A stretch of DNA of 64,000 nt from an uncultured Nitrososphaerales archaeon (GCA_963713605.1 CAVQMO010000010.1:544001-608000), one strand, 5' to 3'; shown: positions 1 to 14,405, numbered from the stretch's first letter. Numbers and translations are program-made. Notes: a model not told the origin generated them from the letters alone.

Positions 1-171
1 TTACAATTAGGAAACTTTTTTCCGGCAACTTTTGTATGTATCTATTAGTCATTTTGATATGAATGATGAGGTATTATAAATCATAATCTTTTGTTCAAAG
101 AAGGAGGATTCTCTATTAATCATACCCGGAATATACAAAACTTATTGAGCATCGCTCCTATATTAGAGATT

Positions 172-462
172 ATGAGTAAACTGATGTATGTAAAAAAACT
201 AGAAGTAAAGAAGGAACAAATACCTACAGATAAACACTTAACGACCAACCATAAGACATTGATGCACACGATCGTAGCCGTTGTAGGATTGTCAATACTG
301 ATAGGAGTCGGGTTCGCATTTATGGGATACACCTCAGGTCACTTTTCAGAGGCATATGTGTTATGTAAGAACGACGTGTTATCACAAGAAAGGATAGGTG
401 TATTCCAATCTGCAAACGAAATTACTGCGGCGCTACAATCATGTAATGGAGTAACCAATTAG
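172..462 (+). CDS. Small single-TM hypothetical protein
   Basis: ORF with hydrophobic segment IVAVVGLSILIGVGFAFMG; ATG at 172 preferred over TTG at 91. Confidence 0.5.
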   Translation: MSKLMYVKKLEVKKEQIPTDKHLTTNHKTLMHTIVAVVGLSILIGVGFAFMGYTSGHFSEAYVLCKNDVLSQERIGVFQSANEITAALQSCNGVTN

Positions 463-714
463 AGAAGTAGATTTTACGTCAAAGCATAAAGGCTGGATTG
501 GCTCGTCACAAACACGCATGGTAGGACGGCCAATTCACTTCTACATAGTCCTCGAGTCGGCCAGATGATCTGAATATCGCAATAATCTATCTTCCACCAG
601 TTTATTCACGTATCTGTTAAGAAATGGTCTGTCCATTTCTACTTTAGATGCCTCTATGAAGTATACTTTAGATGCCTATATGACATAGTTCAATAACAGT
701 GGACACAACTCGCC

Positions 715-845
715 CAGAAACTCATAGTATCTCTTCACACTGCAGTTGTGATAGATGAATGGAAGCTGACAAACAACAAACGTCCCATGATGATATATTT
801 GATTCATTTAGGCTTGCTTTATGCAACTATGAGCCAGCGGACTGA
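715..845 (+). pseudogene. 3' remnant of terminase large subunit-like gene (type B), copy 1
   Basis: Manual translation QKLIVSLHTAVVIDEWKL(D; 1-nt deletion)KQQTSHDDIFDSFRLALCNYEPAD*; HDDxxD-R motif typical of the TerL C-terminal nuclease end. Confidence 0.7.
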
Positions 846-1182
846 TCTTCCAAAAGATATATCTTTCAAGTTTACCCTAATGCTTTAAAGCTCAAATTTG
901 GTTGGATGCCTTTATTGCATTCAAGGGAAACAAAGAGAACATAAAAAGGACAAGTCAGTTAAGCTGCTGCATGTACTCTTAGACTCACGACATTTCTCAT
1001 ATTATTACTCGTACCTATGATGTTTACTGCTGACTTTTTCTAGGAATAACTAATCACACAAAAAGTAGGAACAAATTAATAATCACATCTTACTGAGCTC
1101 GGACACGCCGAGCTATAATAGATAATGATGTGGTATACATAGATAATCCGGAGAGGCAGCCCAACAACAATAATGGAATGAC

Positions 1183-1237
1183 AGGGCTAGTACACCAACT
1201 CCCATGATTGGAAGATAGATGCGGATGTACTAGCCCT
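1183..1237. repeat. 12-bp perfect inverted repeat (hairpin)
   Basis: AGGGCTAGTACA (1183-1194) / TGTACTAGCCCT (1226-1237). Confidence 0.7.
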
Positions 1238-1322
1238 AGGTATTACCGGATTCTACATCCAATACGAGACCAAAGTATTTAAGCTCTGATGAAGCCGTAG
1301 GATCTAATTACCTTCCCCTCAC

Positions 1323-1502
1323 TATAAAGGCGTACGTGGAAAGGGAAGCGTAAAGGTACATAGTGAGATCCATCTTAGATATTTGGGAAACCTAGAAAAT
1401 CCAATGGCACAGGAACTTATCGATGCAATTAAGAAAGGTCAATCAGTTGTTCTAGAGATTACTCCAAAGTATTACTCAACTTGGGATTACAGTAAACAGT
1501 GA
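1323..1502 (+). pseudogene. C-terminal fragment of pyridoxamine 5'-phosphate oxidase-like protein
   Basis: YKGVRGKG...LRYLGNLENPMAQELID...VVLEITPKYYSTWDYSKQ* aligns by eye to the C-terminus of 9142..9618, with an internal deletion and no 5' half. Confidence 0.75.
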
Positions 1503-1775
1503 TCATATTTTTCGCGCAATATGAACAGAAAATCTATTACTAAGTTGAGTTCTTGAAAAATGTCGCGGATCATGCGATACAAGAACATGGTGTGCACGCC
1601 GATGAAATCTACTTGAACGATCTTCCGGTCAATCTTTTGTATCATTCCTTTTAACGAATGTGAGGACATTCTGCAATTATTACTGCCTATTAGGAATTAG
1701 TAGAATTGCTTGGATAGTTAAATAGGAATAGTCGAAATATTTGTGTGCAACTTCGATTAGAAAGAGTCTTAAATC

Positions 1776-2213
1776 ATGCAAAACCATCATAATTATATGA
1801 AAAAAACATGTCTAAAATTTGTCTTAGGCGCAGGACTAGGGTTATTTATATTAAGTACTATTCAGGTGTCGGCTCAACCTCTAACAAAGGACACTTTAAC
1901 TGGAAATGTAACAGAAGTAGACATTTCAATAGATCCTGCAGAACCCCTGCCGCCAAACGGGACGGTAACTATCAGTACAGAAGGTGCAACAGATACAGAC
2001 ATGAATGCATTTCCACCTGAAGGAGTTAACGTCATTATCTCAAGTGATACCGTTACAGTAACGAATCAAACCGTAGATCTCGGAACGGCTGAGGGACAGG
2101 AAGATGGATCTGGATCCGGTGATGGAGGTTCTGATGAGGGATCTGGATCCGGTGATGGAGGTTCTGATGAGGGATCTGGATCCGGTGATGGTGGTTTCGA
2201 TGATGAGGAGTGA
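1776..2213 (+). CDS. Secreted acidic protein with Gly/Ser/Asp-rich tail
   Basis: Signal peptide ending VSAQ; GSGSGDGGSDE repeats. Confidence 0.75.
   Translation: MQNHHNYMKKTCLKFVLGAGLGLFILSTIQVSAQPLTKDTLTGNVTEVDISIDPAEPLPPNGTVTISTEGATDTDMNAFPPEGVNVIISSDTVTVTNQTVDLGTAEGQEDGSGSGDGGSDEGSGSGDGGSDEGSGSGDGGFDDEE
2106..2204 (+). repeat. 33-bp coding tandem repeat x3
   Basis: GGATCTGGATCCGGTGATGGAGGTTCTGATGAG: two exact copies plus one degenerate copy. Confidence 0.9.
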
Positions 2214-2744
2214 GTAGAGGAGTGAAGAATGCGATGACTATTGTCTGAGTATCCTCTTTATTTTCTGCGCGCAAATTTACATCATCCTGAATTGAAATTT
2301 GAATCGAAAAGGCAGGGCCATGGTAGATTGGATGCCGATAGAGTCGCCCGCCTTTATGGTGTGTGTTGCGATTAAGGGCCAACTATCTTCCTGATCGAAA
2401 ATTGACTTTTAGTGTGCAAGTTTCGTATTCCAATTTGTTTGTTGATTGAAATTAGAAAGGTTATCGATGAATCTCATCTAGGGTATACTCTGATATGAGC
2501 CTAGAGGAACCAATACTAACTGTGAGAAACCTTCAAAACTTTTTTAGCGTCAACTGAATCAATTTCTGTCAATGATGATGAGCCCCTTTACCTACGGGAA
2601 TCTAACCGTACAGGGGTAGAGAGAGCATCTTTCCGTAAGATGAGTATTTCGGAAAAGACAACGGATCTAGTCCAATTCAACCATGGTATGTCATCTCATG
2701 CTTGCATACAACATCTTTTAAAGTAGTGAGTCACTCAAGTCATC

Positions 2745-3467
2745 ATGCAAAATGCTTCCGGAGTAACTTTCATCGTGAAAGAGATGGTAAAGCACCTTGG
2801 TAACTTGCTATTTGTCAATGCTCTATTCATATTCCTTCGCAAAAGAACAAAATCAGGAGCAGAGTACAATATCAAGTTAATTGGACAGCCGACTAACTAC
2901 TTTAAAATTAGCGCCGCCGTTATCGGCATATCGTCTTCGGTTATTTCAATTTTGATTGTAATTGTATTCGATCAAAACATAATGATAGTAATTGCTGCCG
3001 TATTCATTTCTCTTGGGACGGGGCGACAGATCTTTGCCTCGGCACTGGATGTCGTAAATACGAACCTGAACGCCTTCTTGTCATCTTGGGCATCAACTCT
3101 TCTATTGCTTGCAAAGAATAGGCTGATGGTGACGACGACAGATTGGCGTTCCATAGAACGTCGAGTCGAGCTGATACTCATGAGCAGGGGGCTTGGGTAT
3201 AATTTGCCAGTTAAACTCGATGGGGTAAAACCAGAATCTCAGCAAATATTATTAGAGTATTTGGATGAGCATAAATTGGAGTTAGAGTATCAACAGGCTA
3301 TTACAGATGATGATTCTAGCTGCCTTGCTTTTGTCCAATACGCAACTAAACAGATGAAAGAAAAGTTTCAGATATATGATGAACTGGAAGAACTACAGGA
3401 AAGAAGTGGAGGCGTTAACGCAGTAATCCTGATAGCATTGGGAACGTTGATTTGGTTAATTTCATAG
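2745..3467 (+). CDS. Multi-pass membrane hypothetical protein
   Basis: 240-aa ORF with several hydrophobic helices; AT-rich TATA-like TTTAAA about 25 nt upstream. Confidence 0.65.
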   Translation: MQNASGVTFIVKEMVKHLGNLLFVNALFIFLRKRTKSGAEYNIKLIGQPTNYFKISAAVIGISSSVISILIVIVFDQNIMIVIAAVFISLGTGRQIFASALDVVNTNLNAFLSSWASTLLLLAKNRLMVTTTDWRSIERRVELILMSRGLGYNLPVKLDGVKPESQQILLEYLDEHKLELEYQQAITDDDSSCLAFVQYATKQMKEKFQIYDELEELQERSGGVNAVILIALGTLIWLIS

Positions 3468-3494
3468 TTTGGCAGTTCTTACAGCAGAATATGT

Positions 3495-3719
3495 TTGTCA
3501 TTTCAGTACCATTTAGCAAGGAACAAGAACATGTTATTCCATGTCAAAGAACTCATGGAGTATCAAACTGGATATGTGGCTATTCATCCAAGCCATAACA
3601 AACTAATAACATCCCTAAAAACTGCTGTAGAAAATGGAGAGGGCATGCTAGACAAGGAAGCCACTTCACATGATGACCTGTTTGATTCTTTCAGATTATC
3701 CCTTCAGTTCTGGCATTAG
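3495..3719 (+). pseudogene. 3' remnant of terminase large subunit-like gene (type A), copy 2 (longest)
   Basis: NKNMLFHVKELMEYQTGYVAIHPSHNKLITSLKTAVENGEGMLDKEATSHDDLFDSFRLSLQFWH*; no ATPase domain upstream. Confidence 0.75.
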
Positions 3720-3913
3720 TCTAGTCTGGCAAGACAAGGGAGATGGAATCTTGATATACATTTAGATCGGGGCACCCTGTGCTTTGTTGTCTGCAAGTCT
3801 GATTGAGCATGAACTGTAAGAGCTGCACCACAAAATAAGAAGGATATAGAATAAATGGAAAGGACCAACGCTAATATTTTCTGCGACAACACCATGCCAA
3901 ACTTTGAAGGCAA
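3720..3913 (-). pseudogene. Truncated N-terminus of a secreted protein
   Basis: Signal peptide ...LTVHAQ followed by SDLQTTKHR, then non-coding-looking sequence; sits between two terL remnants. Confidence 0.4.
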
Positions 3914-3949
3914 TATTTAATGATGTTTACCTATGATCGCCTTCAAGGA

Positions 3950-4075
3950 TTCAGTAAACTCATAACAGCATTAAGGACAGCAGTACAGAAAGGGGACGGT
4001 ACGCTGGATAAGGAAGCAACTTCACATGATGACTGCCTGGATGCTTTCAGGTTGTCTTTTCAGTTTTGGCATTAA
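3950..4075 (+). pseudogene. 3' remnant of terminase large subunit-like gene (type A), copy 3
   Basis: FSKLITALRTAVQKGDGTLDKEATSHDDCLDAFRLSFQFWH*, in frame and clearly homologous to copy 2. Confidence 0.8.
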
Positions 4076-4328
4076 CATGGTTAGAACTTGATTTAGGATT
4101 CGCCGCTTTTGTAGGCTTGTCAATCCTGTCCAATGCCCCAATACCTCCTTCTTTTTCTTTATGCAATTCATGGCCTTTGTCTGCGTCATGGTAACCTAAC
4201 CAATAACAAAGGTTTAAAGTCATACTCAGTAACCTCGTTGGGGGTGCCTCGGGATATTTCTGATTCTTCCTCGCAATGGGTTTACCTTCAGGATCTTGAA
4301 ACAATACGTCATAAGATTCTCCTGTCAT
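4047..4328 (-). CDS. Hypothetical protein (possibly truncated)
   Basis: ORF from ATG at 4328; its 3' end runs antisense into terL remnant copy 3. Confidence 0.3.
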   Translation of the reverse strand: MTGESYDVLFQDPEGKPIARKNQKYPEAPPTRLLSMTLNLCYWLGYHDADKGHELHKEKEGGIGALDRIDKPTKAANPKSSSNHVNAKTEKTT

Positions 4329-4468
4329 TATTTGTAACTCCTCGAAAGATTTCACAGGAACTATGACTAAGGGACGTAGATAAGAAAGCAACAAGCCACG
4401 ATGACCTCTTTGATCTTCCAATAAATATATCTTACAAGTCTGCCTTAACGCTTTAAAGCGTAGTTTGG

Positions 4469-5222
4469 ATGGATACGTTATTGCATTCACAAGGACAAGG
4501 AGAACTTAGAAAGAAAACGTCCGTGAGCGCTGCCGTCCGTGCTCTTAGATTCGCGTTATGTCTCATTTTACTAATTATACCTGTGATGTCAACTGCTTTC
4601 TCTGATAACGCGATAGGACAGACAGTACACCCACAAAGAGTGGAGATTACAAGAGTAATAGATGGAAACGGGGCCAACCCTTGTCCACCTTTTCAGGGCC
4701 CTGGACTTCCCCCCGCCGGAGAGTGTGATCAAGCAACAGTATCAAAAAAGATTACTATATCATTTAGAGCTGTAGCCGGTGTGCCCAATGTAGCTATGTA
4801 GTATAGATGGAAAGGCTTTTGCAAGCTGTACCAGTCCCATTACCTTCAATAATCTTGCTTTAGGTATTCACACTTTCATAGTAAAAGATAAATCAGCGGC
4901 GCCTCAAAACCCAGATTCTTACACTTGGACCGTACTAACGCCAGCTCAAGGAGTACAAAAACTGATCGATACTATAAGTACGATGAATATCAATCCCGTA
5001 TTCAAAAATAGTTTGATATCTCAGCTAAAAAGCGTCAAGACAATAATTACCGATGGCAGTCCTAGCAACGACGTCACAGCATGCGTTCATTTAGATTCAT
5101 TCTTGATACAAGTAAGGATCCAAAGTCAGCTGGGGATACTAACTACTTCTCAAGCTAACCAAATAATATACACTCTGCCGTTTTCAGCGCAGGCAATAAA
5201 GACGTCATTGGGATGTGCATAA
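4469..5222 (+). CDS. Secreted protein with Ig-like beta domain and helical C-terminal domain (one frameshift near 4790)
   Basis: Joining frames gives signal peptide...LCSIDGKAFASCTSPITFNNLALGIHTFIVK...YTWTVLTPAQGVQKLID, continuous with ORF 4983..5222. Confidence 0.7.
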
Positions 5223-5309
5223 AATACGAGCTAACGGTCTATAGACGCGACCAAACTTTCATTCAGTTATTAGCGTTACCCTAAAGCATTCATAGTTTCT
5301 GAAAGAATC

Positions 5310-5333
5310 TTACCATTGCAGTTGTGGCATTAG
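5310..5333 (+). repeat. Minimal terL 3'-end remnant
   Basis: TTACCATTGCAGTTGTGGCATTAG = LPLQLWH*, versus LSLQFWH* in copy 2. Confidence 0.55.
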
Positions 5334-5400
5334 TTGGCGGGGAGACTACCCTTAACACCGAATGGTGCAAATTGCCTAGACTTAAGTAGGATTAGCCACC

Positions 5401-5563
5401 GTTGCCGGCAGCGCCACTTTCGTTAACTATGCGGTTTGGGAATCTGTGGAAGTTTACAGAAATGCTGTCAACAAAGTTGGCGTTCGGCGGTCTAGACTAG
5501 CCACTTATCCTGACAGCACAGTCGTATCGCCACATTTGTTCGAGGGTTGCGGTTCCTGAGATC
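5401..5563 (+). pseudogene. C-terminal fragment of antibiotic biosynthesis monooxygenase (ABM) family protein
   Basis: VAGSATFVNYAVWESVEVYRNA...YPDSTVVSPHLF(fs)RVAVPEI; NYAxWES is an ABM-family motif. Confidence 0.65.
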
Positions 5564-5598
5564 TCCCAAGATTGAATTTGTTTGGCATATCTCCGTAA

Positions 5599-5610
5599 TT
5601 CTGGCACTAG
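5599..5610 (+). repeat. Minimal terL 3'-end remnant
   Basis: TTCTGGCACTAG = FWH*, followed by AGTCTAGTCT as after copy 2. Confidence 0.45.
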
Positions 5611-5863
5611 CAGTCTAGTCTAGTCTTATGGCAGTAGTCGTCAAGTGTGGTACTTTACTCTCGCCTCTTGAATGCTGTTTTTGTCGTTGTCGCTTTGCTT
5701 AATGAAGTCTGTGAAGTGCGTCCTATCCATTATGCTGTTACAGTGAATACATTCGAATCTCATCATCTCGTTTTACTGTAAAGTCAACTCATAACGTCAA
5801 CATTGTTTATATACATTCTAGTATAGCTCTGCTAGAATCTTTCACTGTCACGGTCATGCTGGG

Positions 5864-5890
5864 TTCAGATTGTCACTGCAGTTCTGGCAA
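5864..5890 (+). repeat. Short terL 3'-end remnant
   Basis: TTCAGATTGTCACTGCAGTTCTGGCA = FRLSLQFW; differs from copy 2 only at third codon positions. Confidence 0.75.
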
Positions 5891-6105
5891 CCTGATTTTA
5901 AACTGTATGCGTTAGTAGTCATGGACTCCACGTCTTTCCAGAAATCATCCCATATGATGTAGGACTTATCCCTTAGTTGCTTTCTACAAATATTACGGAG
6001 TCCTGAATCTAGGAAACCGTGAAGGATGAACTTTGAGCCCACAAATTGACCGACCTAAAAGAAGGCTAAAAGATAATAGTTGGTATCGTTAGTAATAGTA
6101 GTAGT

Positions 6106-6639
6106 ATGGTTACGCCGTGCTTCCAATCTTTTGTTGCAATAATCCTTGTTGCAACCGCTATTGTATTGCCAGTGTCAGTGTCGTTCGCAACGGAGCGAGC
6201 TATTCTACCTGAACCAGTACCTGAACCAGTACCTGAACCAGTACCTGAACCAGTACCTGAACCAGTACCTGAACCAGTACCTGAACCAGTACCTGAACCA
6301 GTACCTGAGTCAATACCTGAATTTTCCATATCGCCTTTCCCCTTCCCTTTTCCACCGAGTAGTAGTACCGGTTAAATCGAACCCACAATCATCCCAATGT
6401 GCATAAACAGTGTGTCTGGATTCATACCTTTGCAATCGTTTGGTGCTACAACATGTCCAGCCCAATATTTGGAGGTAATCTTGATAACTAATCCTTCAAA
6501 TACAGCAGTTACGTTTAGTGGTAGTACTAGTAGTAATGTAAATAATTTACCTCCCGGCAATAACTTGTGCACGTACGGTGTATCATACGTAGGTTACCCT
6601 AGACTGATTTTATATGAATGCCTTCGATTGCCTGCATGA
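6106..6639 (+). pseudogene. Secreted PEPV-repeat protein interrupted by an in-frame TAA (6373-6375)
   Basis: ORFs 6106..6375 and 6397..6639 are in the same frame, separated by a single stop; signal peptide plus Pro/Glu stalk. Confidence 0.55.
6208..6303 (+). repeat. 12-bp tandem repeat x8 (PEPV)
   Basis: CCTGAACCAGTA, eight perfect copies. Confidence 0.95.
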
Positions 6640-6689
6640 AAATGGTCGTGGGCGGAAATAATAGGAGATAAAAGAGACTGACTTCAATG

Positions 6690-6815
6690 TCAAAGAGGTT
6701 TATCAAGATCCATCCTTCGTTGCAGAAATTGATAGTATCTCTGCAGACGGCTGTTGTGATAGATGATTCGAAGCTGGACAAACAGCAGACATCACACCAT
6801 GATACCACATCTTAG
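6690..6815 (+). pseudogene. 3' remnant of terminase large subunit-like gene (type B), copy 4
   Basis: SKRFIKIHPSLQKLIVSLQTAVVIDDSKLDKQQTSHHD; closely matches copy 1, truncated after the HxD motif. Confidence 0.75.
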
Positions 6816-6844
6816 CGAAATAAATAATAAACAAATATGAGTAT

Positions 6845-7048
6845 CTAACGACGATTGCTACTGCTATCATTAGTATTACTTGTTTCAGCAGTGTCGCTGC
6901 TATTTAATGGGATTTGAGTTGGATTATCCTTATGTTGTTTAAACTTCATTATGGCGCTGGCATAGGCACTACTGGACGTCCCCATGAGTACCGAACTAGC
7001 TATTAGTGCTGAAGCAATCGCTGCTATAGCTATTGCCAGAATATTCAT
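6845..7048 (-). CDS. Small secreted protein
   Basis: MNILAIAIAAIASALIASSVLMG...AYA signal peptide plus Ser/Asn-rich tail. Confidence 0.6.
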   Translation of the reverse strand: MNILAIAIAAIASALIASSVLMGTSSSAYASAIMKFKQHKDNPTQIPLNSSDTAETSNTNDSSSNRR

Positions 7049-7137
7049 CTTCACTTCAGTTCTGGGTAACAGTATAGAGCGCAAATATATATACTGATTT
7101 TTCTGAAAATTTGTGAGCACTGGGATAGGCAGTGAGT

Positions 7138-7308
7138 CTTGCTCCTTGTAAACATATACTGGGGTACAACAACGGCAACGTAGCGATTCATCCCAAGTTT
7201 AAAAACTATCACAGTGCCGTAGAAAAAGGAGAAGGGACTTTGGATAAGGAAGCAACTAGCCATGACGACGTTATTGACGCACTCACTAATCATGATGCAA
7301 TGCATTAA
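7138..7308 (+). pseudogene. 3' remnant of terminase large subunit-like gene (type A), copy 5
   Basis: LAPCKHILGYNNGNVAIHPKF..(deletion)..AVEKGEGTLDKEATSHDDVIDAL...H*. Confidence 0.75.
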
Positions 7309-7397
7309 TCTGATGTACGACGGTCAATGTAACGGTTTACATAGCGTCAATGTAGTTGCCACCTTTGGAATCGATAAGATAAGATAAGACGAGCCCC

Positions 7398-7412
7398 CAG
7401 TTTTGGCATTAA
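7398..7412 (+). repeat. Minimal terL 3'-end remnant
   Basis: CAGTTTTGGCATTAA (QFWH*), a 15-nt exact match to 4061-4075. Confidence 0.65.
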
Positions 7413-7613
7413 TGCCATGTCTTTTACAGGAACTCACTTCTGACGGGCGTGTTTAGGGTGTCTCCTCAGTTTTTAGCACTGAAGTTCGTGACTGGGGTGA
7501 TGGATCTACCTACTCCACATCCTAAGGCTGTAAATACAGAAAATATATCTACAATGCTATTCTTGAAAACTCAAGTAGTACTTTTCGCCATATGGACCTT
7601 GGATCGTAATGTG

Positions 7614-9134
7614 ATGAGAGGGGCCAATATCATGACAATATCATTATTGTTACTAGTTTCTAGTTTGGCTATGCTCCTAGGAGAAGAAGCATTTGCTACA
7701 ATAGGGATAACGAATATGACTCAAACAGAACCCCCGTCAGGTTTTGCTCCTATTCAAAATGTTTCCTCGACCATGCCTATGCCTCTAGAACGCCTCACAA
7801 TGAGCGCACAATTTGCGCCAGATGGAAGATATCCTCCTGGTTCCGGATATTACCGAATGACAGCTTTAAGTCTCAGTCCAAACAGCAACCTATGCCCTGA
7901 TAATAATTGTCAATATGAATTTGAAGATGGGGAGCTTAGTCCTAATACATCTACAGGCGGATACCTTCTCGGTGGGATACTCCATGTCTCAACACAACAG
8001 AACAGAGGCAATGACACCAATCTATATAACGTAGAAGGAGAGCTTGATAGGGTCCAAGCTTTAGAGCAGCAGGATAACGTGACTGATTTCTTGACCGGTG
8101 AACTTAGAGTAGGAGCCGGAACAGGTAGTTTTGTAGATGACTTTGTTTACAGAATTCTGAATGGTTCGTTGACCCTTCTACCCGGAGGAGCCGTTCTTAC
8201 GCTACAAGGAGAGAGAAACCTTACTTCAGGCGTGCAACAACAGTCGTCCTCTCCTAATCTGACAACACTACAACAGCCCGCTAATCTGACAACACTACAA
8301 CAGCCCGCTAATCTGACAACACTACAACAGCCCGCTAATCTGACAACACTACAACAGCCCGCTAATCTGACAACACTACAACAGCGGCTGGAGCCGCCTA
8401 TGATTGAACAGACACCATCACAAACACCACTATCGCCACTACAACAATTAACCACCGCACCGCCTACAGCAGCACCGCCAACGACATCGTCTTCTGACCC
8501 ATTTAGTCAGACATCGGAAGTATTAGGTACTCAACAACAACAACAACAACAACTCTTCCCGTCTTCACCCTTAACATCTACACCTGGTGCAATACCATCA
8601 CAATCCTCGTACTACCCTCCTTCAAGTACAACATTTCCCCCAACTATTTATCCACCTTCGGGTACAACATACCCCTCAACCGGTTATCCACCTGTAGGCA
8701 CCTATCCAGGCACTGGTTATCCAATGGCTGCTGCCGGTGGCATAGGCGGCGTCTCTACATCCTCCCAAATTATAGCTCCATGGTTTCCGTCCCTTCCCGC
8801 CACTAATTGCGGTGGAACATTTGTCATGACAGTAGAAGGAATCCCAATAGGTGGTAATGGTAACGATAATGATAAGATTACTCCTTCTGATGAGAATGAC
8901 GATAATGGTGACAATGGTGATAATGACGACAAGCAGTACAGTGGCAAGAGCAATAGAAGGCTTGCAGTACAGATAAACTCTGATAACGGTCAAATAATCA
9001 CAGGACAACAGGATGCTATATTTGGTCAGCTATTTCAAGGACAGAAGAATATAGACCAGAACAAAGCTAATGACTTTGATATTAGATCAATATTCAACGA
9101 CTGCCAGGTCTCGATGTATAGTAAGCTAGATTGA
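7614..9134 (+). CDS. Secreted/cell-surface low-complexity (Pro/Thr/Gln-rich) glycoprotein
   Basis: Signal peptide after ATG at 7614; globular N-domain with CPDNNC; mucin-like linker; acidic C-terminal domain. Confidence 0.75.
   Translation: MRGANIMTISLLLLVSSLAMLLGEEAFATIGITNMTQTEPPSGFAPIQNVSSTMPMPLERLTMSAQFAPDGRYPPGSGYYRMTALSLSPNSNLCPDNNCQYEFEDGELSPNTSTGGYLLGGILHVSTQQNRGNDTNLYNVEGELDRVQALEQQDNVTDFLTGELRVGAGTGSFVDDFVYRILNGSLTLLPGGAVLTLQGERNLTSGVQQQSSSPNLTTLQQPANLTTLQQPANLTTLQQPANLTTLQQPANLTTLQQRLEPPMIEQTPSQTPLSPLQQLTTAPPTAAPPTTSSSDPFSQTSEVLGTQQQQQQQLFPSSPLTSTPGAIPSQSSYYPPSSTTFPPTIYPPSGTTYPSTGYPPVGTYPGTGYPMAAAGGIGGVSTSSQIIAPWFPSLPATNCGGTFVMTVEGIPIGGNGNDNDKITPSDENDDNGDNGDNDDKQYSGKSNRRLAVQINSDNGQIITGQQDAIFGQLFQGQKNIDQNKANDFDIRSIFNDCQVSMYSKLD
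8256..8385 (+). repeat. 27-bp coding tandem repeat x~5 (NLTTLQQPA)
   Basis: AATCTGACAACACTACAACAGCCCGCT: four full copies plus one partial. Confidence 0.95.
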
Positions 9135-9141
9135 AAAGAGT

Positions 9142-9618
9142 TTGAAAATCATTAACGCTAATTCTGAAATTCCCGGTATGAATGGCAGAGAAGAGGTCGA
9201 GAGTCTCTTAGGGAGCAGATTGAACTTGCAGCTAGCGACCATTGATGATACGGGTTATCCTAATATCCAGCCTGTGTGGTTCATATATGACAACGACAAA
9301 ACTAGACTCTATATACTAACTAGCGATACCTCAAAGAAGACTCTCAACATTCGCAACAACTATAAGGTCTATTTTTCCGTTGATGACTGCAACATTCCAT
9401 ACAAAGGTGTCAAAGGCAGAGGAAATGCAACTATCCTTAGCGATCCGGCAATTGTCATATCAACAGCAAATAAGTTAAGTATGAAGTACTACGGCTCACT
9501 TGATAGTCCGGCCGCAAAATCGTTGATAGACCGTTCAAAGCAGCAGGATGCGGTAGCGATCGAAATAAATCCCAAGTTCTTCTCCACATGGGATTTTGGT
9601 AAAATGCAATCAACATAG
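9142..9618 (+). CDS. Pyridoxamine 5'-phosphate oxidase-like (split-barrel flavin/F420-binding) protein
   Basis: LATIDDTGYPNIQPVWF, SKKTLNIRNNYKVYFSVD, YKGVKGRG motifs. Confidence 0.85.
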   Translation: MKIINANSEIPGMNGREEVESLLGSRLNLQLATIDDTGYPNIQPVWFIYDNDKTRLYILTSDTSKKTLNIRNNYKVYFSVDDCNIPYKGVKGRGNATILSDPAIVISTANKLSMKYYGSLDSPAAKSLIDRSKQQDAVAIEINPKFFSTWDFGKMQST

Positions 9619-9649
9619 ACAAACAGCCCAGACGTCTTTTTTTACTTAT

Positions 9650-9719
9650 TCTAGTTTATTGTTGCTAGGAGTACTTAACTTTGTAAAGTGAGGAAGATAA
9701 TCAATCTACATATACAATA
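9650..9719 (+). repeat. Duplicated upstream/promoter element, copy 1
   Basis: 34-nt exact match AAGTGAGGAAGATAATCAATCTACATATACAATA (9686-9719 = 10887-10920); similarity extends about 35 nt upstream. Confidence 0.9.
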
Positions 9720-9730
9720 GCTCAACTACT

Positions 9731-9937
9731 GTGTTTAAGATGAGGACGGCCGCTATCACATATTTAGATATTCTTCACCCCAGGTGTGATTCAATTGACT
9801 GTACACAAGATGCCAAGTGCGAGAGGGAAATAAAAGTCAGCGATAGATTAGGTCATTCCTTTATGTTTACAGCATTTTTCTGTGAAAAGCACAAAGGTGA
9901 GGCAAAGATGCCATGGGACGATAGACTAATCCAATAG
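9731..9937 (+). CDS. Small putative zinc-binding protein (Cx4C...CxxH), paralogue 1
   Basis: CDSIDC...FTAFFCEKHK; paralogous to 10949..11140. Confidence 0.7.
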   Translation: MFKMRTAAITYLDILHPRCDSIDCTQDAKCEREIKVSDRLGHSFMFTAFFCEKHKGEAKMPWDDRLIQ

Positions 9938-10178
9938 CAGACACTAGTCAGGGCCGTCTTATTCACTCACTCTATGATATCATAAGGAAAAATCTAAGAT
10001 AGTGTAAGATAGTGTAAAAAGTTGACTTCTTTACGTCCCACACGATTTCTAGATGATCAGGCTCAGTATGAGGCTTTCCCAACTACACCTTTTATTTCTT
10101 TATTGAGATAACCTGCCCTAATTCGTGCCTTACCCCACCTCACACTTTAGGCATAGAAATAGAGTTAAGACATAGATA

Positions 10179-10644
10179 AAATATGCAAGCAAAATAACTG
10201 AGTCTGTTGACACCATTCTCCTGGGACGGAAAATGACTGATGTCTTCATCTCTTCCTGGTTAGATGCGATGAACAAACCTGATGACCCCTGATATGCGTT
10301 CTCTAAAAAGATGATAGAAACCCCAAAAGTTGTGTTCACTAAAACACTGAACAAATCTAGGTGGATAAATACAGATATTGCAACAGGTGATCTCATAGAA
10401 GAAGTTAGCAAGATAAAGAGCCAAAACGGGTGACATTATCGTTTATGGTGGTGCCTCATTTGATTCTTCCTTGATTAAAGAAAAACTAATTGACGAATTT
10501 TATTTGTTTATTAATCCTGTGGCAATCGGAAACGGTATGACCATATTTAAGGACTTGAACGAGATTCAAAAATACTCTCTGATTGAATCAAAAGTGTTTA
10601 AAAGCGGTAAAGTATTGCTCCGTTATGAGCCAAAGAAATCTTGA
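10179..10644 (+). pseudogene. Dihydrofolate reductase/RibD C-terminal-like pseudogene
   Basis: DTILLGRKM...PKVVFTKTL...DIIVYGGASFDSSLIKEKLIDEFYLFINPVAIGNG; 5'-truncated, in-frame TGA at 10290, frameshift near 10430. Confidence 0.85.
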
Positions 10645-10850
10645 CAACAATAATAACGACAACGGCAAGAACTAGACCTTATTTAGACAGTGATCGATAG
10701 ACCTAAAAACTTGTTATACCCCAAGGACTAGTAATGACTTCGTTCGTGAGAACGCATGTCTTGGATTCGCCGACAGAAATCACGCCGCTGACAAATGGGT
10801 TCTGATACTGGGATGACAGGCGGACTTGGTATTTTAGCTGCATTAAGGAG

Positions 10851-10920
10851 TCTAGTCTATCGTTGCTAGGATTAGTTAACCTTGTCAAGTGAGGAAGATA
10901 ATCAATCTACATATACAATA
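10851..10920 (+). repeat. Duplicated upstream/promoter element, copy 2
   Basis: Matches 9650..9719. Confidence 0.9.
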
Positions 10921-10948
10921 ACACACTTAATGTGTGTAAGAATGTATT

Positions 10949-11140
10949 GTGTCGCCCTCAAATATAGATATTTTTAATCCTAGCTGTGATGCCATTGAAT
11001 GTGAAGAAGATGCCAAGTACGAGAGAGATATAAAAGTTCGCGATAGGCTAGGTCAACCTTTTATATTTACCGCCTTTTTCTGTGAAAGGCACAAAAACGA
11101 AGCTCAGACCCCATGGGATGATCATATGTGGGTTGAGTAG
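10949..11140 (+). CDS. Small putative zinc-binding protein (Cx4C...CxxH), paralogue 2
   Basis: CDAIEC...FTAFFCERHK...PWDD. Confidence 0.7.
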   Translation: MSPSNIDIFNPSCDAIECEEDAKYERDIKVRDRLGQPFIFTAFFCERHKNEAQTPWDDHMWVE

Positions 11141-11606
11141 GCGAGGCGCCTTAATGATAAGTAGCACTGATGGGATGGAAACCGTAAAAACACAGCCCCA
11201 TCGAGGTATCTAGATGGACGCAAATTATATGAAGAATGATTGCATAAGGTAGTGGGCCGTTAGGTCATGATCGCCATCCCTATTTCATCGTAGCAGAATT
11301 ACACCTGACTTGTTCCTAAAGCCTTGTTCTTTTCATATGCCTGAATAAATTCCTCGTCTTTGTAACCGAGACATCTGAATCTAACTTTCCTGCCATTTGT
11401 TCCAAGTCTTCAATCGATATGAAAACAATGGTATTATCAGTTGAGGGATTTGTAAACCCAGAGTCCTTAGGATATGACCTTACTGTCTCTTTCTGTAACT
11501 TGTCTGCAGTTTCAAGGGAGATCTCGTCTAATGCTGGAGTAGTGTTGCGTTGTCGATAGACATCGAGTTGGATAAATCTTAATTCAGTGTTAAATCTTTA
11601 GTAGCA

Positions 11607-11618
11607 TTCTGGCACTAA
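11607..11618 (+). repeat. Possible minimal terL 3'-end remnant
   Basis: TTCTGGCACTAA = FWH*; only 12 nt, so it may be chance. Confidence 0.35.
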
Positions 11619-11694
11619 GTTAGGTTTTCCTAGTCACGCGTCGACTGAAAACCCCGAAGTAATCTTTAAAAGAGTAATTGTTGCTCATCCACAA

Positions 11695-11919
11695 ATGTCA
11701 AATCCAGAAGAAAGGCGAAAAGAATTAGACGCTCTCTACAAAGTGGTTAACGACTCTCTAGATCGGAATAATGCTAGACTAAAGTATAATTTAATTCTGC
11801 AATTTAGAAATGAATTGGATTTGAGTAGGCTATGTGTAAATCAAGGCGATGCGGAAGGGGCATGGCTTCATAGTACGTTGGCTCAATCAATAGCTCAATA
11901 CCTGGACACAATGAAATGA
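11695..11919 (+). CDS. Small helical hypothetical protein
   Basis: 74-aa ATG ORF with TTTAAA about 25 nt upstream. Confidence 0.6.
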   Translation: MSNPEERRKELDALYKVVNDSLDRNNARLKYNLILQFRNELDLSRLCVNQGDAEGAWLHSTLAQSIAQYLDTMK

Positions 11920-12207
11920 CGTAAAAAGTTGTTCTGTAACCCGGCCTTCTCGTCTTTTTGGTCTGACACTCCGGTGGTCTGAATCCATATTTTAGTTAGC
12001 GCTGTTACTAGTTGGGAGTATCATTTCCTACCTCGTGATATCGTAAACGGACTATTTACTGTGAACTACAACAAAACTGGATGATGGTACCATTGTTGAG
12101 AGCTACAAAAATGGAGGTACACACGATTCAGCCAGATGGCACTTCAATTTTCATAAACAAAGTAGAGATTAAATGGGATAACCCAGCCAGATGGGCTGAC
12201 TAGGTCC

Positions 12208-12552
12208 TCATTGATTGTCACCATTTTCATTGTCGTTTGAACTGTCTTCTCCATTCCCATTACCGCTAGCATCACCATTTCCGTCCCCATTAGTCTCCCC
12301 ATTCGAATCGGTTCCTGGAGGCCCTTGTGATGGTGGACATCTCTCGATTCCTTCAGCATCAGCAGGACACCCTGATCTTCCAAGGAAATCAGGGTTGGTA
12401 TCGAGTGGGTCGACGAAACTTATTTTGCCGGTCATGTTTCCGCCGGTCATGTTTCCGCCGGTCATATTCTGTGCCATAACAGGTGTAGCAATCATCACTG
12501 TGCTAAGTCCTGCAACTATTGCTAGTATCATGAAGATTTGTTTTGAATTCAT
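12208..12552 (-). CDS. Small secreted protein with NMTGG repeats and acidic tail
   Basis: Signal peptide ...PVMAQ, NMTGGNMTGGNMTG, upstream TATA (TTATATAA). Confidence 0.8.
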   Translation of the reverse strand: MNSKQIFMILAIVAGLSTVMIATPVMAQNMTGGNMTGGNMTGKISFVDPLDTNPDFLGRSGCPADAEGIERCPPSQGPPGTDSNGETNGDGNGDASGNGNGEDSSNDNENGDNQ

Positions 12553-13151
12553 TGCCTACATTAACTGGGTATATTATATAAGGATGCCAACTGACTAAAT
12601 GGCAAGTGACAAGACAATACTCTTCAGCGATTGCAAAATTTGTCTTGCCTTGTCTCCATCTTCAGGCTCTTCATTAGGTTCAGATTCTTCCTCTTCTGAA
12701 TCCTTGTCTTCTGGTTCTTCTTCATCGGTTTAAGCAGATGAATGAATTCACTTTTGAAATAAACTATTGACGGGGGCGGATGCATTATGCATATTATAAT
12801 TGGATAAACCCTCAGCCCAAAAAAAAGAGAATTCCTACAGATATTTAGATGACGGTATTCGATACTGCTCTGCTGAAGGTTAACTAACTTTGTCATCGTT
12901 ACTAGTGAGTGAGTATCGTTTTTTCACGAATGAAATCACAAGCGATATATCACAGACGTAGGTATAAAATATTGTATCTGTTACTCAGATAGGCTAGATA
13001 TTTAAGTACCTTTTAGTCGTCCCTGTCCTCGTGTTTGCGTTTTCATCATTGTGATCTCCTACAATCAGCCTAGAGTTTTTGGCCTCCTTTTGAGAATTAA
13101 CGAATCCCAACAAAGAGAAGGGATAAATGATTCTTCTCCCAGTATACTCTG

Positions 13152-13574
13152 ATGAACGGTGACGAGACAAATAAGAAACAAGAAATATCTTTGACATTGC
13201 CTCGAAGGTTAGACTTTAAAGATATCTGTCCTGTTTGGTCATTAAAACTTAGGTCCGGATTTGATGCACAAGACGTGAAGACTCTCGTTCATGATTCAAA
13301 ATATTGTATTGTCGGTGAAGCGTGGGGATACACTGGAAAACATGCAGGATATTATATAGCTCCTTTAATTCCATTTGTAGGGTGCTGGGAATGTATAAAA
13401 TTAGGAAGAAAAATGGGCAAGATTGCTAAAGAATTTGGCCCCTTGGCTGCCCCAGACTATCTTCGACCAACAATTTACTACTTTGTTAAGCATTGGAATT
13501 TGAAGCATTCAACAATATCTGGGAAGTCAAGACGTCTAGAGATTAGGAAAAACTTGAAGTTCATTGCTACATGA
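13152..13574 (+). CDS. Hypothetical protein (Cys-containing)
   Basis: 140-aa ORF with CIVGEAWG and CWEC. Confidence 0.65.
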   Translation: MNGDETNKKQEISLTLPRRLDFKDICPVWSLKLRSGFDAQDVKTLVHDSKYCIVGEAWGYTGKHAGYYIAPLIPFVGCWECIKLGRKMGKIAKEFGPLAAPDYLRPTIYYFVKHWNLKHSTISGKSRRLEIRKNLKFIAT

Positions 13575-13627
13575 ATCTCCGTCATACATTGCAAATGAAT
13601 AATTATTGATGAGGCAGATCTCTAGCT

Positions 13628-14405
13628 GTGGTCAATATTGGCCTTATCCAATTGCAACAATATGATAAACTCGGCGCTGCTCCGAGAACTCGGCTGATAC
13701 TAGAGCACTTTAAAAGGCTCTTTCGTAAGGCATCTGATATATACGGCTCTAACATAGACCTCGTCTGCCTACCCGAGCTTTGGTACACTAGTATAGTAAG
13801 AGATTTTGAAAAGGAGTTTAAGGTCATTATCGAGGTAGCTAGGGAATATGACATCACGGTAATACCGGGGGCATTTAAAGAAAAAATTTGTGACAATATT
13901 TACGTGTCATGTCCTGTTGTTACGCCAAATGGAAGCGTATTAGGAAGGCAATTCAAAATTCATTTATTTGGGCATCAAAGGAAGACGCTAAAACCAGGCT
14001 CAAAAATAGAGGTCTTTGATATTGGTAAACTTAAGTTTAGTGTGCCTATTTGCTACGATTTAGTGTTTCCAGAGATAGCAAGAATCAGCTGTAAGTCAGG
14101 GTGCAGAGTTACTCTTCTTTCCATCAAAGATTCCCACTCCAGGTATTAATCCATGGCATTTGTATTTGCAGGTACGGGCCCTAGAAAATAGAATCCCTGT
14201 TGTCGCTTCGAATGTGTGCGGGGGCTTATTTGGTGGAAGGAGTATCATAGTGGACCTCAAGTATGATAGAGGCACAGATATTGCAACCCCCAAAATTAAG
14301 ACTGGAGCAGCTGTTAGAGAGCAAATAATAATTGTAGATATCGATCTAAAGAGATCTAGACAAATGCGTCAAAGGAGGTTTGCTGATTCGTTAATTACTA
14401 GCTAA
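13628..14405 (+). CDS. Carbon-nitrogen hydrolase (nitrilase family), one frameshift near 14090
   Basis: LPELW, KIHLF, ICYDLVFPE catalytic motifs; RALEN in the second frame. Confidence 0.9.

Follow-up and report, generated by a model that had tools for sequence, protein, structure and literature searches.

Nitrososphaeraceae are major soil nitrifiers, and little is known of their mobile DNA. In Thaumarchaeota, elements with tyrosine recombinases use short attachment (att) sites, 14/68 of them in the 3'-distal parts of protein genes, and the sections of the survey by Krupovic et al. (2019; PMC6563490) on which we draw also describe tandem re-use of sites and piggybacking of elements on other elements. 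Only five hits to the terminase large subunit (TerL) in thaumarchaeal genomes are given in the same sections, terminases being otherwise unknown in non-viral elements. Integrons have been reported in Archaea too, according to the part of Ghaly et al. (2022; 10.1101/2022.02.06.479319) used here. We analyzed a stretch of 64,000 nucleotides (the window; G000:C10:544001-608000) from G000, the 4.09-Mb, 15-contig genome of a soil ammonia-oxidizing archaeon of the Nitrososphaeraceae (completeness 87%, contamination 4.5%). Its first 12 kb hold an array of small cargo modules punctuated by co-oriented 3' remnants of a TerL-like gene. In what follows, C1-C15 are contigs of G000, L numbers are loci or contigs from relatives or viruses, and G numbers are genomes.

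We favor, with moderate confidence, the explanation that the array arose as mobile elements accreted, and modules were exchanged, at an attachment site that overlaps the stop codon of the TerL-like gene. Such a system would resemble the elements of Krupovic et al. in its short att site over a gene end, in a stop codon that comes from the inserted DNA, in its host group, and in the co-oriented accretion of elements within elements. It differs from what the cited sections describe in that the target is a multi-copy mobile-element gene rather than a host gene, in the presence of more than 100 remnants per genome, and in its many sub-kilobase pieces without an integrase. An earlier note on this DNA, made from the sequence alone, had not recognized the array as a described system; this stands for target, scale and module size, whereas 3'-distal integration, tandem re-use and piggybacking were already on record in that source. 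Cryptic elements of the NitKor-E1 type, as presented there, likewise integrate and carry a TerS-like and TerL pair with no capsid or portal genes detected, whereas the family studied here is highly multi-copy and mostly decayed, and its gene end is the recombination point. In the literature we found no description of a capsid-less terminase-derived family of more than 100 fragments, of a recombination point at a stop codon, or of recurrent sub-kilobase modules of this kind.

The comparison with integrons is closer in architecture than in parts. As in integrons, small co-oriented modules are arrayed at a recurring site, the same modules recur across arrays, and a tyrosine recombinase adjoins in at least one relative. 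Unlike integrons, the array has no IntI, no hairpin attC and no integrase within the window, its sites come from a coding sequence, its genes point both ways, and a large share of its cargo is broken. The array works like an integron and fails two of the features that define one, IntI and attC hairpins. If the favored explanation is true, with exchange active where copies are intact, it would let the small surface-protein genes of soil archaea turn over rapidly and would be a second, independent way of building cassette arrays. The 8-nt site described below and the candidate recombinases make the proposal concrete and testable.

A multi-copy terminase-like gene family

Short remnants stay below threshold in Pfam and PHROGs (on remnants alone, Terminase_6C matched weakly, E 0.07-0.12, below cut-off), so full-length relatives were needed to identify the gene. 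A 230-aa paralogous open reading frame (ORF) on C3 retrieved 585 longer proteins of ~490 aa, the named sources of which are Nitrososphaeraceae. Full-length members match phrog_2, 'terminase large subunit', with E values of 4.7e-22 and 1.3e-19 over residues ~60-500; their Pfam Terminase_6C matches are again weak and below cut-off (E 0.01-0.1), and a sequence profile search of the PDB retrieved no terminase. An AlphaFold model built on 42 sequences (predicted local distance difference test score, pLDDT, 83) was compared with solved structures by Foldseek and matched the terminases T4 gp17 (E 4e-17), Sf6 gp2 (4e-13) and HK97 TerL (1e-12), as well as those of D6E and P74-26. Domain by domain, the T4 gp17 ATPase structure 2o0h aligned with a template modeling (TM) score of 0.48, and the nuclease structures 5m1f (TMt 0.67) and 2wc9 were also matched. 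Conserved WIKKATGLGITE and LDEADFF mark an N-terminal ASCE ATPase with Walker A and B motifs. None of the 42 sequences departs from D328, D388, D494, D497 or the Walker B residue E204, and at least 90% have D203. Both the residues and the Foldseek matches identify a C-terminal RNase H-like nuclease with its acidic triad, the last of the invariant acidic residues lying in the HDDxxDAFR motif. PHROG match, structural matches and invariant nuclease residues together bear out the earlier note's assignment of the gene as terminase-large-subunit-like.

Relatives at 31-45% identity over nearly the full length occur on 39 viral contigs in IMG/VR. The chromosomal family thus shares its phrog_2 match with the TerL of head-tailed thaumarchaeal viruses (L096-L134) and differs from it in setting: three of five scanned viral contigs have virion genes downstream (L100 has a portal match, L096 and L097 have major-head-protein matches), for which the chromosomal copies have no detectable homologues. 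Specifically, tblastn at E 1e-4 with ten proteins of the viral relatives (portal, major-head-protein matches, unnamed neighbors and upstream ORFs) found none of them in G000 or in 45 related loci, a search of limited sensitivity for proteins so divergent.

The family is spread over the whole of G000 and is strongly biased to its 3' end. A family hidden Markov model (HMM) run on the six-frame translation gave 102 hits (49 on the + strand, 53 on the - strand), with 4-6 hits covering profile positions 5-225, ~14 covering 275-375, and 48-60 covering 455-485. Pooling HMM hits with core sites that have a recognizable remnant gives 133 sites (72 + and 61 -) in 63 clusters, 33 of which contain two or more, and the window cluster is the largest. 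The earlier note had envisaged a single anchor gene with one array and named random genome-wide scatter in both orientations as what would refute it. Some 130 fragments on both strands leave no room for a single anchor; the fragments are indeed scattered, which goes part of the way to the refuting outcome, although neighbors are mostly co-oriented, with adjacent sites on the same strand 60 times and on opposite strands 10 times. The full-length + strand copy that the note suggested looking for to the left of the window is represented only by a 5'-truncated one at C10:540716-541493. No intact copy exists in G000, where no ORF exceeds 230 aa and the near-full copies are interrupted by stops or frameshifts, while the relative G005 has at least five intact copies. 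The family was found in 13/13 other genomes of the genus (including the unpublished G013) and in 17/18 genomes of the family Nitrososphaeraceae, and it was absent from 12/12 sampled genomes of other families in the order.

Some contig ends of G000 are duplicated: C2:78568-89999 and C12:377833-389318 (11.5 kb) are ~99.5% identical, and C2 and C13 are 99.4-99.7% identical across the compared 4-kb windows. These duplicates probably reflect assembly redundancy or strain mixture; a few of them, on C2, C12 and C13, are among the sites counted above and slightly inflate some copy numbers.

Breakpoints at the stop codon

Remnants in the window come not from a single gene, as the earlier note had it, but from two subfamilies of one family, A with the C-terminus ...FRLSLQFWH* and B with ...LCNYEPPKN*. 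The last codons of subfamily A, ..CAG TTC TGG CAY TAR, contain an 8-nt core, TTCTGGCA, and subfamily-A homology stops at the stop codon, beyond which several alternative downstream segments follow. In L024, an intact gene ends in TTCTGGCACTAG and is followed by ~690 bp ending in TTCTGGCATTAA and then by ~640 bp ending once more in TTCTGGCACTAG, both downstream 12-mers being preceded by ~8 recognizable codons. A third module of ~390 bp abuts the TCTGGCA-like start of the usual downstream segment (equivalent to window 5611-5860), 1.7 kb behind the gene. Two such 12-mers within 3 kb of L024 are very unlikely to be due to chance, and similar stacks occur in L074, L068, L076 and L084.

Comparison of paralogous sites places breakpoints at the same position. 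Among 72 core sites taken with 2-kb flanks, ten non-duplicate pairs are at least 88% identical: homology ends 0 to +2 nt from the core in three, starts 1-32 nt before the core in six, and spans both sides in one. The site at C10:468683 is chimeric, matching C14:29331 upstream and window 5882 downstream. A length difference between strains also runs from core to core. Contigs from two metagenome studies join 3707 to 5599, skipping 1891 bp with three modules; the 8 letters common to both sides of the join are the core, and no paralogue in G000 is at least 92% identical to both sides. Joints at 3718->5673, 3593->4169 and 3643->4007, each with short sides, and parts of the window without contigs were not counted as evidence. 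Direct repeats of the gene's 3' end flank inserted DNA in L024 and at window cores 3708 and 5599, and modules are bounded by a recurring recombination site. Part of the earlier note's central claim survives in this form: the 3' end of the gene acts as a reusable recombination point.

Subfamily-B copies lose homology within 0-36 nt of their stop region in 44/48 pairs. One 816-bp unit with a subfamily-B remnant at its 3' end has been copied between C10:852755 and C15:139803 (99.4% identity), and its empty site was not found because the flanks are mosaics of multi-copy pieces. At the level of contigs, this unit and the 1891-bp variant are possible signs of single-unit movement, and no circular junction was seen. 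We infer the acting enzyme, the direction of change (insertion or deletion) and the movement of single modules from these patterns.

Within the array, blastn and HMM comparison with paralogues, together with 12-mer counts, confirmed nine of the ten remnants claimed in the earlier note, all on the + strand, and revealed an eleventh, at 4370-4410, that it had overlooked. The subfamily-A pieces at 3476-3719, 3950-4075 and 7132-7308 read ..ENGEGxLDKEATSHDDxxDAFRLSxQFWH* and the subfamily-B pieces at 715-845 and 6681-6815 read ..LIVSLxTAVVIDDxKLDKQQTSHxD..., while the short pieces are the final 4-9 codons of subfamily A. In order, the remnants are as follows.

715-845, + strand: subfamily-B 3' remnant, ~residues 446-491, frameshifted, own stop region kept; homology 715-841 (blastn to ~20 paralogues, starts 715-763, ends 831-841; HMM match 765-836)
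3476-3719, + strand: subfamily-A 3' remnant of 65-74 codons, ending in core plus stop, TTCTGGCATTAG (3708-3719); the note had placed its start at 3495, and homology actually begins at 3476
3950-4075, + strand: subfamily-A remnant of 40-42 codons, ending in TTTTGGCATTAA (4064-4075)
4370-4410, + strand: remnant piece LDKKATSHDDLFD, with the last ~14 codons deleted internally, fused to the module that starts at 4411
5310-5333, + strand: possible short remnant PLQLWH*, read from the sequence, with one mismatch to the 12-mer; plausible, without significance by itself
5455-5613, + strand: decayed remnant, ..FGISP*FWH*, with TTCTGGCACTAG (5599-5610) as its last letters; its endpoint coincides with that of the paralogue C3:66378-66221
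5864-5890, + strand: nine-codon remnant FRLSLQFWQ, its core (5882-5889) fused directly to module 5891-6012
6681-6815, + strand: subfamily-B remnant truncated on both sides, match 6681-6806, without ~the last 15 codons
7132-7308, + strand: subfamily-A remnant, 3'-truncated after HDDVIDA
7398-7412, + strand: short core QFWH* (TTTTGGCATTAA), part of the palindrome TGGCATTAATGCCA
11607-11618, + strand: short core AFWH* (TTCTGGCACTAA), followed by the 'type-2' downstream motif ..GCGTCGAC..

The exact 12-mer TTYTGGCAYTAR occurs five times in the window (at 3708 and 4064 and within 5599-5610, 7398-7412 and 11607-11618), always on the + strand and within the first 12 kb, against 0.09 expected; none of 100 shuffles reached five. 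Over the whole window the 8-nt core by itself is not significantly enriched (10 matches against 5.5 expected). Genome-wide, the exact 12-mer occurs 60 times where ~6 would be expected, an approximately tenfold excess. Synteny with relatives is conserved from ~12997, which makes the array the right-hand edge of a variable island. The perfect palindrome TGGCATTAATGCCA, at 7403-7416, is made by the core and the bases that follow it; in other copies TGGCA is repeated directly 4-20 nt downstream.

Accretion, erosion and other explanations

We propose that a divergent family of TerL-like elements multiplied in one Nitrososphaeraceae genus and that DNA would have been inserted, removed and exchanged repeatedly, exactly at TTCTGGCA. 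The elements' tyrosine recombinases would most likely be the agents, and internal deletions would yield small derivatives, made of cargo and their own TerL-derived end, that could still be recombined. Since such derivatives would keep the TerL-derived end, co-oriented 3' remnants of every length would accumulate, split by cargo modules. Every TerL-like copy in G000 is broken, and the window would accordingly be a fossil record of this process, with no working machine.

Where the gene has been retained, its surroundings offer candidates for the machinery. A gene with a helix-turn-helix (HTH) resembling sigma-70 region 4 lies directly upstream in 18/45 related loci, in the position of the small terminase subunit, and further upstream in some loci there is an 884-aa protein without a family match, a neighbor in four contexts. 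Tyrosine integrase hits were obtained in 12/45 loci. In L024 and L054 the order is integrase, 124-aa gene, TerL-like gene, the integrase being upstream and co-directional, while in L038, L060, L062 and L069 it is downstream and convergent. Fusions in which the 5' portion of an integrase gene runs into the 3' portion of TerL, found in L074 and at C10:465796-466864, indicate that internal deletions of such elements do occur.

Several observations weigh against accretion and exchange at this site. No complete element was found between two TerL cores. As the earlier note had stated, the window lacks an integrase (no PF00589 match); none was found between any two cores inspected or in any window interval, and the integrase of L024 and L054 stands upstream of the TerL-like gene, outside the modules. 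Direct-repeat searches of L037, L062, L069, L052 and L057 found no element flanked by TerL ends, and the DNA upstream of the L054 integrase contains no core. Among 16 TerL ends at 15 loci (intact or frameshifted full-length copies, one of them nearly so, each with at least 1 kb of downstream DNA), only four have remnants within 1.5 kb. The ten core-site pairs are partly non-independent and represent ~6 separate events. Evidence on strains comes from assembled metagenome contigs, not raw reads, and a close paralogue in another strain is a possible source of the 3707/5599 join. Subfamily B has a different end with no common core evident, and the left junction of the 816-bp unit has no core, target duplication or inverted repeat. 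Remnant lengths vary continuously between 7 and 81 codons without falling into size classes, a distribution that fits erosion equally well, and pieces of unrelated genes also lie in the array (PNPOx-like at 1366-1509 and RibD_C at 10176-10653). Finally, three arrays of G000 follow a tRNA gene that has an integrase next to it. Behind each of tRNA-Lys, tRNA-Arg and tRNA-Met come co-oriented remnants, 7/7 within 15 kb downstream. An island of ~33 kb (C10:850575-883403) starts at the tRNA-Met gene, has an adjacent 403-aa integrase and at least four co-oriented terminase-like remnants, and has two repeats of the tRNA 3' end (20 and 23 nt, at 881201 and 883381) at its far side. Because these repeats bound the island, some accretion evidently uses tRNA sites rather than the TerL end.

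These same observations lend themselves to a passive explanation, in which capsid-less elements with the TerL-like gene last integrate in tandem at ordinary sites such as tRNA genes and then erode. Random deletion and segmental duplication would do the rest, tails would be kept by chance or through overlap with convergent genes, and the TerL end would have no special role. The three tRNA-led arrays and the tRNA-Met-bounded island are what it would lead one to expect, as are the continuous remnant lengths and the unrelated gene tails and pseudogenes in the same array. A contig of one study moreover joins 9649 to 10851 through a 273-nt repeat and not through a core, with 1.2 kb including the RibD_C pseudogene missing, so that this variant is repeat-mediated, and a convergent ORF at 5854-6042 reads through the remnant at 5864-5890. 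Passive decay does not readily account for the tenfold enrichment of the 12-mer, for short cores that divide modules right behind the intact gene of L024, for breakpoints that gather within a few nucleotides of the core on both sides, the chimeric site included, or for a core-to-core length variant in two studies. We consider it unlikely; were it nonetheless correct, terminase genes would still be seen to persist and multiply outside viruses.

The window array itself has no tRNA anchor within C10:516000-544000 or window 1-30000; the closest tRNA gene is tRNA-Leu, at window 30120. The anticodon arm of tRNA-Lys (C1:551042-551135), TCTGGCTCTTAA, resembles both the core plus stop, TCTGGCACTAA, and a variant of the module left end, TTCTGGCTCG, a resemblance that may be due to chance. 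L057 is a 1.19-Mb contig from a different genome of the Nitrososphaeraceae. Behind its intact terminase-like gene, 5.25 kb are enclosed by the two copies (91% identical) of a 47-nt direct repeat (8558-13858), with six tandem 177-nt repeats inside (8936-10121).

A more active version of the proposal would make the locus an integron analogue without IntI, in which a tyrosine recombinase beside a domesticated, capsid-less terminase recombines the 8-nt core at the stop codon with mini-cassette ends derived from the terminase gene. We regard this as doubtful, and equally doubtful the corollary that such an analogue would capture small genes for secreted and membrane proteins and move them between islands, elements and strains, perhaps with added spread when the terminase packages them in the capsids of a helper virus. 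Further still, and improbable in our estimation, is an integron-like capture platform in the full sense, with a dedicated recombinase next to the TerL-like gene that would take the gene's end as primary site and would capture, excise and shuffle single-gene cassettes with secondary sites of TerL origin, to the benefit of the host. Its appeal lies in the order integrase, 124-aa gene, TerL-like gene, cassettes of L024 and L054, in sub-kilobase modules with one small gene each that recur across arrays and genomes, and in the co-orientation of 10/14 cargo ORFs of the window array with the remnants. The three associated integrases, however, are generic ones and score 28.8-30.4 bits against the integron-integrase model TIGR02249, far from its cut-off of 265. 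Hairpins are not apparent either: when 100-nt stretches ending at six cores were folded as DNA, 0/12 strands were more stable than shuffles (z -1.3 to +1.9), a test that used no attC covariance model. The window lacks an integrase, module orientation is mixed, and pseudogenes and fragments are numerous. With no IntI-type integrase, no attC-like hairpins and every TerL-like copy in G000 broken, the label of integron given in the earlier note is not retained.

A role for the TerL-like protein itself as the mobility enzyme seems very unlikely. With its ATPase, its RNase H-like nuclease and its HTH partner, the protein would cut at or near the end of its own gene, in the manner of a new type of transposon or of lateral transduction, and copying or packaging from the cut would give 5'-truncated copies together with downstream DNA. 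This would agree with the fixed 3' end and variable 5' truncation, with units of remnant plus downstream segment that are common to several loci, and with the HTH-TerL pair of 18/45 loci, mostly without a detected integrase and with no capsid or portal genes found. Set against it, the gene's nearest viral relatives are conventional TerL genes with portal and capsid genes behind them, the 816-bp unit shows no terminal repeats or target duplications, and integrases lie near 12/45 loci. Terminases are not known to have strand-transfer activity. Chimeric joins of repeats in a metagenome-derived assembly, which the incomplete and slightly contaminated genome and its near-identical duplicate contig ends (C2/C12, C2/C13) might suggest, can be set aside almost entirely, as the same pattern appears in 13/13 further genomes from the genus, in publicly available contigs from several projects and in the contigs of four separate sequencing studies.

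Cargo modules and minor features

Of 20 ORFs (91-14146) searched against Pfam, just three received a name: a PNPOx-like gene at 9142-9615, a RibD_C fragment at 10471-10641 and, beyond the array, a CN_hydrolase at 13628-14146; the 'Ig-like' and 'ABM' labels that the earlier note had attached to cargo were not reproduced. The Bromodomain profile matched 5854-6039 weakly, short of its cut-off, and Rfam gave no match in window 1-13500. The other parts of the array are as follows.

843-1031, + strand: start of a secreted-protein module, after a B-type end; repeated at 4411-4597 and C10:997689-997882
2662-3474, + strand: module carrying the gene of a 240-aa membrane protein (2745-3467), present four times in the genome
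5611-5860, strand unassigned: 'type-1' segment, natively 3' of the TerL-like stop in many copies, with 13 paralogues
7413-11606, + strand: 4.2-kb cargo interval with a 561-aa repeat-rich secreted protein, the PNPOx-like gene and a RibD_C pseudogene

The 2662-3474 module has a core-like right end, TTTGGCA (3468-3474), and its copies end in TTT(T)GGCA; in the paralogues, core-like TTCTGGCT or TTGCTGGCY stands ~35 nt before the left edge of homology. Its summed depth across four metagenome runs is very high. The type-1 segment carries a convergent 41-aa ORF (5641-5766, - strand) and begins with a second TCTGGCA-like hairpin, GTCTG-GCAA-CAGAC.

The 4.2-kb interval also holds two small Zn-ribbon-like genes within the 273-nt repeat, whose copies at 9650-9922 and 10851-11122 are 78% identical and each encode a cysteine-rich protein of 63-68 aa. 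Its RibD_C pseudogene (10176-10653) is 90% identical to C10:873422-873901. In the 561-aa secreted protein (7449-9134), PANLTTLQQ occurs five times in tandem alongside tracts rich in Q, P and T; an 89-aa protein at 6106-6375 contains eight PEPV repeats. Neither protein has a family match. By eye, and with the pair unaligned, 1366-1509 translates like the 3' end of the PNPOx-like gene 9142-9618 (..ITPKYYSTWDYSKQ*), and the segment matches four other places in G000. Tail fragments are therefore not confined to the terminase-like gene. A 34-nt stretch at 2574-2607, which has no Rfam match, has 100% identical copies on C11, C13 (twice) and C3; in three metagenome runs it is flanked on both sides by loose contig ends, suggesting a small, independent, multi-copy piece.

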